A stretch of 64,000 nucleotides of DNA. Origin: Escherichia coli. Lineage in GTDB: Bacteria > Pseudomonadota > Gammaproteobacteria > Enterobacterales > Enterobacteriaceae. Below, one piece after another: positions 19,986 to 30,877 of the stretch. The stretch lies in assembly GCA_031701365.1 (NCBI GenBank), contig GCA_031701365.1_4118.1; one strand, written 5' to 3'. The notes below the pieces were generated by a model that was given only the letters and a program-made list of their open reading frames with translations, was not told where the DNA came from and searched no databases. The position numbers and the translations under genes are program-made. Each line of letters begins with the position of its first letter. The stretch's first letter is position 1.

Positions 19986-20324
19986 ATGGAACAATATTTT
20001 GAATTAATAAACAAAGTATCATTTTATGTAGTATCTTTGGTTTGGGTGTATTATATGTTTTGCTACATTATTGCATTCTTCCGATACACTACTTTATATG
20101 AACGTATCTACTATGATGCCCCAATTTCATTCTTGATGTTTTGTGCATGTACGTGGGGAATATTAGAAGTACTGATATGTGGGTATAGTACTGATGAATT
20201 AAATCTGGTATCGGTCTTGACTGGGTTTTCATTTGTTGTTATGATAGCTGCCGTTCCAGTATGGTTGTTCTTTGGACTAGTTCATCGCATTGATATATGG
20301 CGTTCTAATATCCCTGAAAAGTAA
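19986..20324 (+). CDS. small membrane protein, paralog family M (A1)
   Basis: 112 aa, 3 hydrophobic helices, C-terminal WRSNIPEK. Confidence 0.65.
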   Translation: MEQYFELINKVSFYVVSLVWVYYMFCYIIAFFRYTTLYERIYYDAPISFLMFCACTWGILEVLICGYSTDELNLVSVLTGFSFVVMIAAVPVWLFFGLVHRIDIWRSNIPEK

Positions 20325-20333
20325 GGATTTGTA

Positions 20334-20675
20334 ATGATTTATTACACTAACATGTTTGCCTATGCTGTTGCTTGCATTTACATTGTTTACTTCTTATTCG
20401 GTGGAGTACTGTGCTTCTTTAAGTACAAAACGTTGTTCAACCGAATGTACCCAAATCATCCAATTGTAGTTGTACTTTTGATTCTTTCAGTTTCTCAAAT
20501 AATCGTTGAAACTACAATGGGTATCAGTAGTGTACATTATAGTTTTGGTACTATAGTAATTATTACTATGCTTATTGCATACATTTTAGTACTTGGATAT
20601 GGTATCTTTGGTAATATTGGTATGAAAATGTATCATCGAATTAAAACATTACGTGATAATCTACCGGAGCGTTGA
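20334..20675 (+). CDS. small membrane protein, paralog family M (A2)
   Basis: 113 aa, C-terminal LRDNLPER. Confidence 0.65.
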   Translation: MIYYTNMFAYAVACIYIVYFLFGGVLCFFKYKTLFNRMYPNHPIVVVLLILSVSQIIVETTMGISSVHYSFGTIVIITMLIAYILVLGYGIFGNIGMKMYHRIKTLRDNLPER

Positions 20676-20676
20676 T

Positions 20677-21021
20677 ATGTATAATTTGAACCTAATCTCA
20701 TATATTATAACAACACTGTTTACATTCTATGCCTTTGTTGGTATAATCCTACTGTACTTTAAATTTTATAAAGTGTTTAACCGTTTCTATCCTTCAATGG
20801 AGAATGAGTTTTTCTTTGTGTTGTACGTAGGTTACACATTAATGGCTACATGTTTCACTGTAGCCGATGGTGTCATCGGCATTAAAACTGATTCCCCAAA
20901 TGGTAGTACGCTGGTTGCATTTATTCTTACCGGATTCCTTGCAACTTATATTGCCTTCATTACAACATGGTCAGTGGTTGAATTTCTCTTGCGACTACGA
21001 AAGAATATGCCGAATCGATAG
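20677..21021 (+). CDS. small membrane protein, paralog family M (A3)
   Basis: start set at ATG 20677 just after previous stop; C-terminal LRKNMPNR. Confidence 0.6.
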   Translation: MYNLNLISYIITTLFTFYAFVGIILLYFKFYKVFNRFYPSMENEFFFVLYVGYTLMATCFTVADGVIGIKTDSPNGSTLVAFILTGFLATYIAFITTWSVVEFLLRLRKNMPNR

Positions 21022-21030
21022 GAGACATAT

Positions 21031-21285
21031 ATGTTTGCATTGCGTAACAAAAACACTAAAGAATTATTATGTATTGATACCGTATGGGATTGTGCGGGTT
21101 CAACTACAGTTCTTGAAGAAGGAACTGGATATTGCGTGTTTGTTGTACATGATAGGAATGAACTCGAATTATTACTTGCTGAGTTCAATGCTGGTGGTAA
21201 TCCTAACAGTACTGAATACCCTGAGATTATCAATCCAGCACCTCCAGGTTCATATGAAATCCTACCACTATGGGTGTTGAAATAA
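21031..21285 (+). CDS. hypothetical protein
   Basis: 84-aa ORF, RBS TAGGAGA. Confidence 0.55.
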   Translation: MFALRNKNTKELLCIDTVWDCAGSTTVLEEGTGYCVFVVHDRNELELLLAEFNAGGNPNSTEYPEIINPAPPGSYEILPLWVLK

Positions 21286-21665
21286 TGCGACAAATGTACA
21301 AAGTAACCGAGCTAAACAAGCGTCTGGTTAAACAATCTATGTTTGAGGATAAAGAGTCTTACTATAACTTTAAACGTGCTGTAGAGGCTGCTATCCACAT
21401 CCAGAAGCTTAAAGAACGTGGTTGTATTATTCTGGAAAATGGTTCGGAAGTTGTAACGGATGACTTTAGTGTAGCGTTTGATGTTTCACCTGATGGGACG
21501 CTATCAATGCCCCGCTTAGGAACTGGAAACATGACTGTTTGGGTTGGCTTCACTATGGGGAATGTACCTGGTACTGTGTACGTAGATGATGCGGAATTGA
21601 AAGACAGTTTCAAAAACTTATCTTATCTTGAACCACAATACGCACATGAAATGAATTTATTTTGA
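21285..21665 (+). CDS. hypothetical protein
   Basis: start set at ATG 21285 (TAATG overlap) inside the 21270 ORF. Confidence 0.55.
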   Translation: MRQMYKVTELNKRLVKQSMFEDKESYYNFKRAVEAAIHIQKLKERGCIILENGSEVVTDDFSVAFDVSPDGTLSMPRLGTGNMTVWVGFTMGNVPGTVYVDDAELKDSFKNLSYLEPQYAHEMNLF

Positions 21666-21666
21666 G

Positions 21667-28776: not shown

Positions 28777-29123
28777 TGTTTGAAGCTTATCTTGAGTTTT
28801 TAAGGAGTAGTCCAGTTGCACATTCACTTGCAGGGATTATTCTAACAACTTATGTATCATTTTGGGTAGTTATGTTTCTAGGATGGTATTTTAAACGACA
28901 ATTCTATAAACGTAATGGTGAAGATTTTATGAATTCTGCCATTAATCAATCGTTGTTTGCATCAACATTGATTGCATGTATTGTAGCAACACTCACAGGA
29001 AAGGTACTACCAGCTTTTTCCGCAGTTTACGGCACACTTGGGATGATATGTTTAACTTTTATATTGACCATTAAAATTTGTTGTGTTATGATTGAACTTC
29101 GAAATAAGATACCGGAGGAATGA
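28776..29123 (+). CDS. small membrane protein, paralog family M (B3)
   Basis: 115 aa; C-terminal RNKIPEE. Confidence 0.65.
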   Translation: MFEAYLEFLRSSPVAHSLAGIILTTYVSFWVVMFLGWYFKRQFYKRNGEDFMNSAINQSLFASTLIACIVATLTGKVLPAFSAVYGTLGMICLTFILTIKICCVMIELRNKIPEE

Positions 29124-29458
29124 TGGAGTACTTTATTGATTTACTTCCGTGGTATATGAAAGTTAGTACCATGTACTATATTATTAGTGCTGGATTCTAC
29201 TTTCTGATGTGGTTCTTTAAACGACCAATTTCAGTATTCATCGCTGATAACATGCTGCAATTAAAATTACATGTATGGTTCTTGGCTTCTATGATTATGC
29301 CAACTATTCACTACTCGCTAATTAGTAGAGGGTTTCGTTCTAATGGTGAACCTGTAGTGCTTGTATTCTATTGGGTTTCAACTATAGTATATATTGGACT
29401 TTTTTTGTTGCCAGTGGTTCATAAATTACGTTCTAAAGTTCCTGATGCGAGGTACTAA
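29120..29458 (+). CDS. small membrane protein, paralog family M (B4)
   Basis: 112 aa; C-terminal RSKVPDARY; ATGA overlap. Confidence 0.65.
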   Translation: MMEYFIDLLPWYMKVSTMYYIISAGFYFLMWFFKRPISVFIADNMLQLKLHVWFLASMIMPTIHYSLISRGFRSNGEPVVLVFYWVSTIVYIGLFLLPVVHKLRSKVPDARY

Positions 29459-29772
29459 TGGATATAGTAACATTGATTTACACGTTGTATTCATTCTATT
29501 TCATTATGTGTTGGGTTGGATTTTTATTTGTACTCAAGATGTTTGATTATGTTGAAAAACAGATAAAAGAATTTTGTATTCCTTTTATCGGTTCAACCAT
29601 TATTAGTGTTTCTTGTGTGTATTTTTTGGTTTTTGATCCACCAGATAACACTGCAATGATTGACTTGATGTTACTACCAACAACTGTTACTTTTTTATGT
29701 AGTCTGATGCCGCCGATTAGCCGTGGACTAACAGAATTTAGACGCAATCAAAAGCGTAAACGAGGGATGTAA
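29458..29772 (+). CDS. small membrane protein (B5)
   Basis: 104 aa; basic C-terminus RRNQKRKRGM. Confidence 0.6.
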   Translation: MDIVTLIYTLYSFYFIMCWVGFLFVLKMFDYVEKQIKEFCIPFIGSTIISVSCVYFLVFDPPDNTAMIDLMLLPTTVTFLCSLMPPISRGLTEFRRNQKRKRGM

Positions 29773-30140
29773 TGGAAATTGCTCTTATTATCTTAACTGC
29801 TATGTTGTTTATTAGTACTGTGGTTATAATTGGTAAATTCTTTTGTGTATCATTTTTAGAAACGGTATACGATGAAATTGCTGATGATTATGAACTACAA
29901 GCCGGATTTTTCATTACGTATTGGCTTAGTTTATTTTGTCTAGTCATTGCTTGGATTTTACATATCTTTAAATGGGGTATGGTAGACGGTGATCCTATTA
30001 TGGCAATTATTGTTCTAGTGTTTGGTATCCTTGGTGGTGCAGTGCATAATCTAATGGTTATCTGGCAAACTGTTCAATATGTTTTGGTTCCCTATTTCGA
30101 AAAGATGCACAGTACAATTAAAAAACGTAAACGAGGTTAG
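29772..30140 (+). CDS. small membrane protein (B6)
   Basis: 122 aa; basic C-terminus KKRKRG. Confidence 0.6.
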   Translation: MEIALIILTAMLFISTVVIIGKFFCVSFLETVYDEIADDYELQAGFFITYWLSLFCLVIAWILHIFKWGMVDGDPIMAIIVLVFGILGGAVHNLMVIWQTVQYVLVPYFEKMHSTIKKRKRG

Positions 30141-30141
30141 T

Positions 30142-30504
30142 ATGAACGGGATAGAATTATCTTTCGTTGGTCAATTACTAGTAATGGCGTATACATTTAT
30201 ATTCTCACTGAATGCATTCGTGTGCATTGGGAAGTACTTCCATAAGCGACCATTATCAAATATATATGATGTAATCCAAAAGAGATATAGTCCAGCATAT
30301 ACTGTGTTGGGTACAGTATTCAATTTTGGTTTTATTGTATTAATAATTGGACTGTTCACATCATCTTTGAATACAATAACCTTCGGTCTTATGATATGTT
30401 CATTGGTATTAGCAGTAATTATATGTTGTTTAGTACTGCACCTTGTGGTACTATTGTATATAAAGATCTCTGAAATCCACCAACGTTTGGGTATGAGGAA
30501 ATAA
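30142..30504 (+). CDS. small membrane protein (B7)
   Basis: start set at ATG 30142 (RBS GAGGT) inside the 30079 ORF. Confidence 0.55.
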   Translation: MNGIELSFVGQLLVMAYTFIFSLNAFVCIGKYFHKRPLSNIYDVIQKRYSPAYTVLGTVFNFGFIVLIIGLFTSSLNTITFGLMICSLVLAVIICCLVLHLVVLLYIKISEIHQRLGMRK

Positions 30505-30505
30505 T

Positions 30506-30877
30506 ATGAGTTACCGTGAGATATTTTCCATTATTTCAATTATTATGTTCAGTACTGGAACACTGGTATGGTTATTATACTTCTTCTGTATTAATCCAGT
30601 GTATAATATGTTATGTAATATTAAATCAAGTGCCGGATATATCACTTTTATGGTCTTTATGGGATATTATTGTCTAAGCATTTTAGGTGTTGTTTTGGTT
30701 GTTATATTTGATGTGGGACCAAATAGTGATGGTATGGAAATACATGAATTAATAACCATGTTTGGATGTATGATACCAACAGCACTACTGTTTGTAGCTA
30801 CTGGTAGTGGATTGATAAAATTATATAATTATTTAAAATCCATTCATAATTCCATTCATAATAAGCGTATGTCATAA
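30506..30877 (+). CDS. small membrane protein (B8)
   Basis: 123 aa, hydrophobic helices. Confidence 0.6.
   Translation: MSYREIFSIISIIMFSTGTLVWLLYFFCINPVYNMLCNIKSSAGYITFMVFMGYYCLSILGVVLVVIFDVGPNSDGMEIHELITMFGCMIPTALLFVATGSGLIKLYNYLKSIHNSIHNKRMS

Follow-up and report, generated by a model that had tools for sequence, protein, structure and literature searches.

Two tandem arrays in an Asteriusvirus jumbo phage encode eleven paralogous small proteins with a predicted three-pass membrane architecture

We analyzed a 64,000-nucleotide (nt) stretch of DNA (contig GCA_031701365.1_4118.1 of assembly GCA_031701365.1, filed under Escherichia coli; hereafter the window), which belongs to an Asteriusvirus jumbo coliphage of the 121Q/PBECO4 group and is 96% to 97% identical to phages 121Q, PBECO4, and SP27. 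The subject of this report is a set of eleven small plus-strand genes arranged in two tandem arrays, the A array (A1 to A3, 19986-21021) and the B array (B1 to B8, 28097-30877). A megablast search with positions 19900-31000 matched 74 phage records, headed by BAU.Micro_ELP-22, SP27, JP4, 121Q, and PBECO4; because the top matches cover only ~70% of the region despite their 96% to 97% identity, the region is mosaic. The 121Q counterparts of the eleven genes are gp207-209 and gp224-232, every one of which is annotated as hypothetical. The genes are already in databases as hypothetical proteins; in the literature that we searched, we found no description of the arrays or of one family uniting them.

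An earlier note, prepared from the letters of the window and a list of its open reading frames (ORFs), had placed eleven genes at these positions, and all of the ORFs are present there. The size range given for their products, 104 to 123 amino acids (aa), was borne out after correction of the starts (Table 1): internal ATG codons downstream of a Shine-Dalgarno sequence are the better starts for A3 (ATG 20677 rather than GTG 20653), B2 (28438 rather than 28426), and B7 (30142 rather than 30079). The genes had further been described as fused by ATGA or TAATG overlaps. This applies to five junctions of the B array, four with a 1-nt TAATG overlap (B1/B2, B2/B3, B4/B5, and B5/B6) and one with a 4-nt ATGA overlap (B3/B4); the packing is as tight as had been claimed, but A2/A3, B6/B7, and B7/B8 are separated by 1 nt and A1/A2 by 9 nt. 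The eleven ORFs are real genes, with ratios of nonsynonymous to synonymous substitution rates (dN/dS) of 0.03 to 0.38 and orthologues in more than 30 phage genomes. B7 is 100% conserved in SP27, 121Q, and PBECO4; its orthologue is unannotated in SP27, PBECO4, and phAPEC6 and is also missing from the UE-S1 record, and the SP27 and UE-S1 records carry a short minus-strand ORF annotated in the B7 position.

Table 1. Array genes and associated features. Positions are those of the window unless marked as reverse-complement coordinates of another phage genome; TM, transmembrane segment (predicted); HMM, hidden Markov model.
Feature	Position	Strand	Description
Sigma-70-like promoter	19637..19665	+	TTGACA-17-TATTCT; upstream of g19702 and the A array
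g19702	19702..19983	+	93 aa, soluble; opens the A operon and is separated from A1 by 2 nt; phrog_37917, function unknown
A1	19986..20324	+	112 aa, 3 TM, tail RSNIPEK; phrog_19285, E = 3.9e-59; held-out HMM E = 2.8e-4
A2	20334..20675	+	113 aa, 3 TM, FFKYK loop, tail RDNLPER; 100% identity in 21 phage records
A3	20677..21021	+	114 aa, 3 TM, tail RKNMPNR; held-out HMM E = 1.2e-9
NrdC.10-like ATPase	27259..28029	+	T4 NrdC.10-like P-loop/AAA ATPase; phrog_1250, Pfam AAA; CC31 homologue annotated nrdC.10
Promoter-like element	28039..28069	+	TTGACAGTACTACCATCGTGTAGTACTATAAT; upstream of B1
B1	28097..28438	+	113 aa, 3 TM; recent duplicate of B2; lacking in PBECO4 and phAPEC6
B2	28438..28776	+	112 aa, 3 TM; phrog_19454; held-out HMM E = 1.2e-8
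B3	28776..29123	+	115 aa, 3 TM, tail RNKIPEE; phrog_19046, weakly also phrog_19454
B4	29120..29458	+	112 aa, aromatic-rich, three helices by homology; best-conserved member between genera
B5	29458..29772	+	104 aa, 3 TM, KRKRGM tail; weakest link to the superfamily
B6	29772..30140	+	122 aa, 3 TM, KKRKRG tail; groups with B7; held-out HMM E = 9.7e-9
B7	30142..30504	+	120 aa, 3 TM; no PHROG; dN/dS 0.34-0.38
B8	30506..30877	+	123 aa, 3 TM and a C-terminal helix; Klebsiella orthologue at 6.1e-34
Hairpin	30883..30906		Perfect 10-bp stem; downstream of B8
g30919	30919..31581	+	220 aa, soluble; phrog_34359, function unknown; no Pfam match
Tail/Shine-Dalgarno overlaps	20660-20676, 28424-28437, 28762-28775, 29110-29122, 29445-29457, 29758-29771, 30128-30141, 30492-30505		
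JNE01 copy-number loci	8797-10179, 18688-19325		Reverse-complement coordinates
Single A-like gene of phage A4	12043-12393		Reverse-complement coordinates

All-against-all BLASTP joined only A1-A2 (E = 1e-9), A2-A3 (2e-5), and B1-B2 (7e-37, 52% identity), with no other pairs supported; B1 and B2 are thus the duplicates that the earlier note had recognized, and its wider claim that all eleven proteins are paralogues, which BLASTP could not carry, is supported by orthologue-based profiles. PHROG families accommodate ten of the eleven (phrogs 19285, 19454, 19046, 27396, 33258, 26405, and 27618, all of unknown function) through full-length matches at E = 1e-50 to 1e-70, with a weaker one for A3 (3.3e-4) and none for B7. 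Profiles were assembled from the window proteins and their syntenic orthologues in JNE01 and A4 (2 divergent Asteriusviruses), the Klebsiella Rak2-like phage OU509535, and the Erwinia Eneladusvirus pEa_SNUABM_12. With orthologues included, phmmer linked the A group to B1/2 at 1e-6, B1/2 to a Klebsiella protein at 1e-7, that Klebsiella protein to B3 at 1e-5, and B3 to B4 at 1e-3 to 1e-4. Comparison of the orthologue-group profiles with hhalign gave 97% for B3 versus B4, 96% for A versus B3, 95% for A versus B1/2, 94% for B6/7 versus both B8 and the Erwinia group, 90% for B3 versus the Erwinia group, 76% for A versus B6/7, and 52% for B5 versus B6/7; four other small membrane-protein families of the same phages, used as controls, stayed at or below 3%, and reversed decoys at or below 14% for other groups, with one self-reversed comparison at 24%. 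HMMs built with one group left out at a time recovered all eleven window members from a 394-sequence database, at E-values from 2.7e-3 (A2) to 2.1e-11 (B8), with every decoy, control, and remaining ORF of the window at E ≥ 0.12; B5 was found at 3.4e-6, though it reached only 52% with hhalign. From these profile comparisons we conclude that the eleven proteins belong to one superfamily, B5 being its least secure member. A search of the window with hmmsearch under default filters yielded no twelfth member, even at E = 10. Four further small genes with 2 to 3 predicted transmembrane (TM) segments (11091-11330, 11391-11717, 12167-12544, and 22514-22765) were considered as family members and proved unrelated by hhalign; JNE01 and A4 keep all four, and the Klebsiella phage keeps three.

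The proteins had been credited with three to four hydrophobic helices; membrane helices are indeed predicted, and their number is three. Kyte-Doolittle profiles contain three hydrophobic 19-mers in 10 of the 11 proteins, and B4 has one strong and two weaker, aromatic-rich segments at the equivalent positions. In an alignment of 40 superfamily sequences, the N-terminus is acidic, and basic residues gather directly behind TM1 and in the C-terminal tail, with the consensus wFFK.K...k.Y.d in loop 1 and L.klR.Kip.kR, or KRKRG in B5 and B6, in the tail. By the positive-inside rule, this charge pattern points to an N-out/C-in topology, in which the N-terminus and the loop between TM2 and TM3 would be periplasmic, and the loop between TM1 and TM2, which is basic and contains a short helix, and the basic tail after TM3 would be cytoplasmic. 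The AlphaFold2 models made for A2 and B8 are of modest confidence (predicted local distance difference test scores of 69.9 and 67.8, respectively) and agree in their series of helices: TM1, a short one in the loop, then TM2 and TM3, and a C-terminal one (helices at 2-28, 32-38, 42-62, and 71-109 in A2 and at 3-26, 30-37, 42-67, 78-98, and 100-122 in B8). The shared architecture predicted from the hydropathy and charge maps, and from the AlphaFold2 secondary structure of A2 and B8, consists of three TM segments with a basic loop behind the first and a basic tail at the C-terminus.

The C-terminal motifs listed in the earlier note occur in the proteins, in the forms given in Table 1 and as RSKVPDARY. 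In most members, the final codons include the Shine-Dalgarno sequence (GGAG or GAGG) for the gene that follows, so that CCGGAG encodes Pro-Glu, CGAGG Arg-Gly, and ATGAGG Met-Arg. Given this double use, conservation of the tail motif may operate partly at the nucleotide level; nucleotide constraint alone does not account for it, since the motif is also present without a Shine-Dalgarno sequence, A1 using CCTGAA and A3 having none.

Searches of Pfam, NCBIfam, PADLOC, BFVD, and the PDB with the array proteins returned nothing significant. The best fold match in the PDB (MscS, E = 3.5) is noise, as is the sole match to the PADLOC defense models (PycTM, E = 0.029, for one member), and the earlier statement that the proteins match no known holin or immunity protein was confirmed across Pfam, PHROGs, NCBIfam, PADLOC, and structures. 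A profile of the eleven proteins run against 5.8 billion proteins gave 29 matches, all Asteriusvirus-like, with some of the records mislabeled E. coli, and an exhaustive HMMER search of 1.84 billion cluster representatives found only 20 clusters at E ≤ 1e-3. At 28% to 31% identity, tblastn reaches RaK2, K64-1, Muenster, and one Erwinia phage. The superfamily is confined to Rak2-like jumbo phages and is lineage specific. Its genomic position is conserved: JNE01, A4, and the Klebsiella and Erwinia phages all share the order of ATPase gene, array of three-TM genes, and RCC1-like genes on the minus strand. Group HMMs read the Klebsiella array as two B3-like genes followed by B1/2-like, B4, B6, B8, and A-like genes, and tblastn places a B5-like gene between B4 and B6; since the Klebsiella phage keeps subfamilies B1/2, B3, B4, B6, and B8, the subfamilies are older than the split between the genera. 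B4 is 68% identical to its counterpart in phage A4 and 36% to that of the Klebsiella phage, whose protein Kp_21088 is assigned to B4 by HMM at 4.5e-23. The pairing of ATPase and array was also sought in T4-like phages, where CC31 has NrdC.10 with no three-TM gene downstream, and is confined to the Rak2-like group. A phi92 homologue, suggested by a "Phi92_gp233" remark in the ph0011 record, was not recovered, a tblastn search with B2 at E ≤ 5 returning no phi92 record.

Measured against UE-S1 and ph0011, the dN/dS values of all eleven genes indicate purifying selection and therefore functional genes, with selection somewhat relaxed relative to the neighboring enzymes (dN/dS ~0.07 to 0.17); no gene-wide positive selection was seen (dN/dS < 0.4 in both comparisons). 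Synonymous divergence (dS) differs strongly between genes, and foreign alleles are found in individual ones: relative to SP27, B4 has 87.5% identity, and its neighbors B3 and B5 have 99% to 100%. Copy number varies as well. PBECO4 and phAPEC6 have a single B1/2 gene (PBECO4 8276-8614, reverse-complement coordinates), the B5 orthologue of 121Q is split into gp228/229, and A4 has one A-like gene. In JNE01, B5-like genes number two, and the position of the A array has four annotated genes, three of which qualify as family members by the criteria applied here. By tandem duplication, both old and recent, the family expanded into two operons with translational coupling. Relative to JNE01 and A4, the array genes retain 25% to 55% identity (B4 up to 68%), whereas the interleaved genes g21743, g22309, g22514, and denV retain 90% to 96%; the array-flanking genes g19702, g21031, and g30919 are likewise divergent. 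Between distant orthologues, the hairpin formed by TM2, loop 2, and TM3 is the most variable part (24% to 30% identity), and the N-terminus, TM1, loop 1, and the tail make up a conserved half (39% to 44%).

Both arrays lie behind conserved promoter-like sequences. The TTGACA hexamer upstream of the A array is conserved in SP27, 121Q, UE-S1, and ph0011, and JNE01 has a perfect early consensus in the same place; the TTGACAGTACTACCATCGTGTAGTACTATAAT element upstream of B1 is kept in SP27, 121Q, UE-S1, PBECO4, ph0011, and JNE01, within a variable flanking spacer. Near-consensus sigma-70 promoters number 33 on the plus strand of the window versus 7 on the minus strand, and many of those on the plus strand have the form TTGACA-N9-AGTACTGTATAAT; all are located in the two plus-strand gene blocks, at 1-31.5 kb and at 48-64 kb, with none for the minus-strand genes at 32-48 kb. 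The gene g19702, which opens the A operon, varies along with the array, with 55% to 58% identity to JNE01 and A4, against 90% to 96% for genes further downstream. At the other end of the B array, the hairpin after B8 is no clear plus-strand terminator, because its T-run is on the minus strand only, and g30919, which also varies along with the array (32% identity to JNE01), is probably the final gene in the B transcription unit. The orthologues of the array proteins in phAPEC6 (gp012c-017c and gp028c-029c) are absent from the list of 62 virion proteins of that phage.

Around and between the arrays lie genes for a kinase, the ATPase, denV, hypothetical proteins, and RCC1-like proteins, with the A array directly downstream of the gene for a T7 gp0.7-like host-takeover kinase (phrog_15752). 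The ATPase gene is itself an allelic mosaic, 96% to 100% identical to those of SP27, 121Q, PBECO4, and A4 and 58% to 59% identical to those of UE-S1, ph0011, and JNE01, with dS > 2. Between denV and the ATPase gene, a 458-aa endonuclease-like ORF (25459-26835, phrog_681) occupies a variable slot, which has no gene in SP27, an "endonuclease" in 121Q and PBECO4, and an "exonuclease ABC C subunit" in phAPEC6 and looks like a mobile homing-endonuclease site. Since three small proteins have signal-peptide-like N-termini (17840-18166, with MKKYIIFGIVLFSSTAYG within the ORF; 18510-18929, MKKIFLSIILVLFSFNVYA; and 26856-27182, MKKLMLVMLMCLSTTVNA), the early block encodes probable periplasmic proteins too. 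A repeated intergenic unit (e.g., AAGGGTTGACTTCGGTCAGCCCTTTTTGCTATAAT) occurs at 13090-13119, 16329-16348, 24453-24482, 25169-25203, and 27199-27233; it consists of a GC-rich hairpin, the stem of which contains a TTGACT/TTGACA -35 hexamer, and a T-run leading into an extended -10 element, TGCTATAAT, and by its sequence resembles a terminator and a promoter in one, placed between early genes. A GGGGAG...CTCCCC hairpin follows several of the promoters located at 54-63 kb. The minus-strand genes from 31562 to ~48000 encode RCC1-like repeat proteins (Pfam RCC1/WD40_RLD) annotated in relatives as "DNA condensation protein," a label that is doubtful because the phAPEC6 orthologues of these genes (gp003-010) are virion proteins.

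Among the functions considered for the arrays, exclusion of other phages or takeover of the host membrane fits best with the early-type promoters, the absence from the virion list, the variation in copy number, and the fast divergence. We tentatively favor the possibility that the arrays supply a battery of early, non-virion inner-membrane proteins that act singly, their hairpins recognizing different membrane-embedded targets. Host RNA polymerase would read both operons early from the conserved sigma-70-type promoters, and the products would remain in the inner membrane of the infected cell, outside the virion. Each paralogue would work alone, its own variable hairpin binding a different membrane-embedded target; the likeliest targets would be the membrane-inserting genome-delivery proteins of secondary phages, the entry of whose DNA would thereby be blocked. 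From the loss of B1 in PBECO4 and phAPEC6, the split B5 of 121Q, and the presence of one to four A copies in viable phages, we infer that members are individually dispensable. The closest functional parallel is T4 imm, a single-copy early gene. Like T4 Imm, the array proteins are small; they are predicted to lie in the inner membrane with a periplasmic N-terminus, would be made early, and are absent from the virion list of phAPEC6; unlike T4 Imm, which has 83 aa, they comprise eleven paralogues of 104 to 123 aa with three TM segments and a conserved cytoplasmic loop and tail. T4 Imm, a small protein of the inner membrane whose N-terminus lies in the periplasm, acts in the membrane of the infected cell and not in the virion, and it stops genome translocation by binding the incoming tape-measure protein, and the mechanism proposed for HK97 gp15 resembles this one (bioRxiv 10.64898/2026.03.06.709160). 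Neither Pfam (E ≤ 1; for B8, E ≤ 0.01) nor PHROGs gave a match of the array proteins to Imm_superinfect (PF14373) or another superinfection exclusion (Sie) family, and the likeness to Imm and gp15 would be functional only, the array proteins standing outside those families by sequence and fold. P22 SieA and other prophage Sie proteins are inner-membrane proteins that block superinfection at DNA entry (PMC10883804); unlike the eleven-gene arrays, they are encoded singly, by temperate phages, and are expressed from the prophage.

Several points weigh against exclusion. No homology ties any member to it, and dN/dS is below 1 throughout, so that the genes carry no gene-wide arms-race signature. 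The set and order of subfamilies shared by Asteriusvirus and the Klebsiella phage would also suit a fixed multi-subunit structure, and the parts conserved among paralogues are predicted to face the cytoplasm, where a pure periplasmic blocker would have no need of them. Strong divergence is not peculiar to the arrays, because ~41% of the JNE01 genome has no alignment to PBECO4 (PMC10868205). The early timing is read from promoter sequence, our literature search having found no transcriptome of an Asteriusvirus-type phage, and mass spectrometry of virions readily overlooks small hydrophobic proteins.

The early-type promoters would also serve if the paralogues inhibited or redirected the divisome, the elongasome, transporters, or Sec/YidC/FtsH, the hairpin selecting the target and the cytoplasmic loop and tail acting as a shared effector or recruitment surface. 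The kinase gene next to the A array and the predicted cytoplasmic orientation of the conserved motifs are in keeping with such a takeover, as is the filamentation and bulging of cells infected by the Asteriusvirus Sharanji before lysis (PMC11895373), a phenotype that needs an inhibitor of division or of the cell wall. Nothing ties that phenotype to the array genes, however, and host targets are highly conserved, so that 25% to 45% identity between orthologues within one genus is unexpected and eleven copies are many; we regard takeover of host membrane proteins as doubtful. Conservation of subfamilies and their order between genera speaks for another view, that the paralogues are subunits of a single inner-membrane assembly needed by this lineage, either a channel or a platform working with the NrdC.10-like ATPase. 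Translation would be coupled and roughly equimolar, as the stop/start overlaps and the 1-nt gaps suggest, the synteny with the ATPase gene reaches Eneladusvirus, the genes are under purifying selection, and the juxtamembrane and tail motifs are common to the paralogues. Such an assembly is nevertheless unlikely, as viable phages lose (B1), split (B5), or duplicate its would-be subunits (one to four A copies), T4-like phages have the ATPase with no such array, and the orthologues diverge far more than neighboring genes. Rather unlikely, too, is its more specific form, a new type of hetero-oligomer peculiar to Rak2-like phages and predating the split of Asteriusvirus, Alcyoneusvirus, and Eneladusvirus, which would be a channel or platform, possibly serviced by the ATPase, for the development of a very large virion.

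Copy-number variation and allele mosaicism, as in B4 relative to B3 and B5, would be expected, too, of proteins that neutralize membrane effectors of host defense (Rex-like, Zorya/Kiwa-type, or the TM effectors of CBASS/Pycsar) by helix-helix binding, for which early-type promoters and a variable TM hairpin would also be suited. The array proteins have no similarity to known anti-defense proteins, PADLOC giving noise only, and no TM anti-defense family of this kind turned up in the searches made, which leaves an anti-defense role quite improbable. Lysis timing is the least supported of the functions raised in the earlier note, and a holin role is unlikely. Class I holins such as lambda S105 have ~105 to 120 aa, three TM helices, an N-out/C-in topology, and a short charged C-terminal tail, and the array proteins resemble them in size, in their three predicted TM segments and predicted topology, and in the charged tail; they could accordingly be imagined as holins and antiholins that time lysis. 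In addition, the endolysin of Rak2-like phages is of the signal-arrest-release type, with an N-terminal TM segment (121Q gp532), and the paper on phage CBB names no holin (PMC5259590). Against this stand the lack of homology to any holin family in Pfam (E ≤ 1 for A1 to B7; E ≤ 0.01 for B8), PHROGs, or NCBIfam and the lack of an endolysin or spanin gene beside the arrays, gp532 being far from gp207-232 in 121Q. Both arrays, moreover, follow conserved sigma-70-type, early-like promoters, the genes have no Met-Lys-Met dual start, and eleven copies in two arrays are unlike any lysis cassette. A separate, weak T4 T-like holin candidate, fEgEco12 Gp406c, lies in another region of the genome, and control of lysis by the arrays is very improbable. 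The fEgEco12 "holin" was also considered as an array gene or as g30919, which equals it in length at 220 aa, and is a different gene that adjoins those for dihydrofolate reductase and RNaseH.

The finding is of an ordinary kind, a lineage-specific family of small phage membrane proteins that addresses no long-standing question. Candidates for phage therapy include the Rak2-like jumbo phages (121Q, PBECO4, RaK2, K64-1, and the Eneladusviruses of Erwinia), over 80% of whose genes lack a known function. Here, an unannotated gene and seven PHROG families, all without assigned function, are merged into one superfamily of predicted three-pass membrane proteins, which now has a signature, early-type promoters, a predicted topology, and a fixed place in the genome and thereby defines a concrete set of clones. 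If exclusion or takeover is its true role, the superfamily would show how a slow-growing giant phage guards its host cell through a long latent period, and it could account for interference between phages in cocktails.

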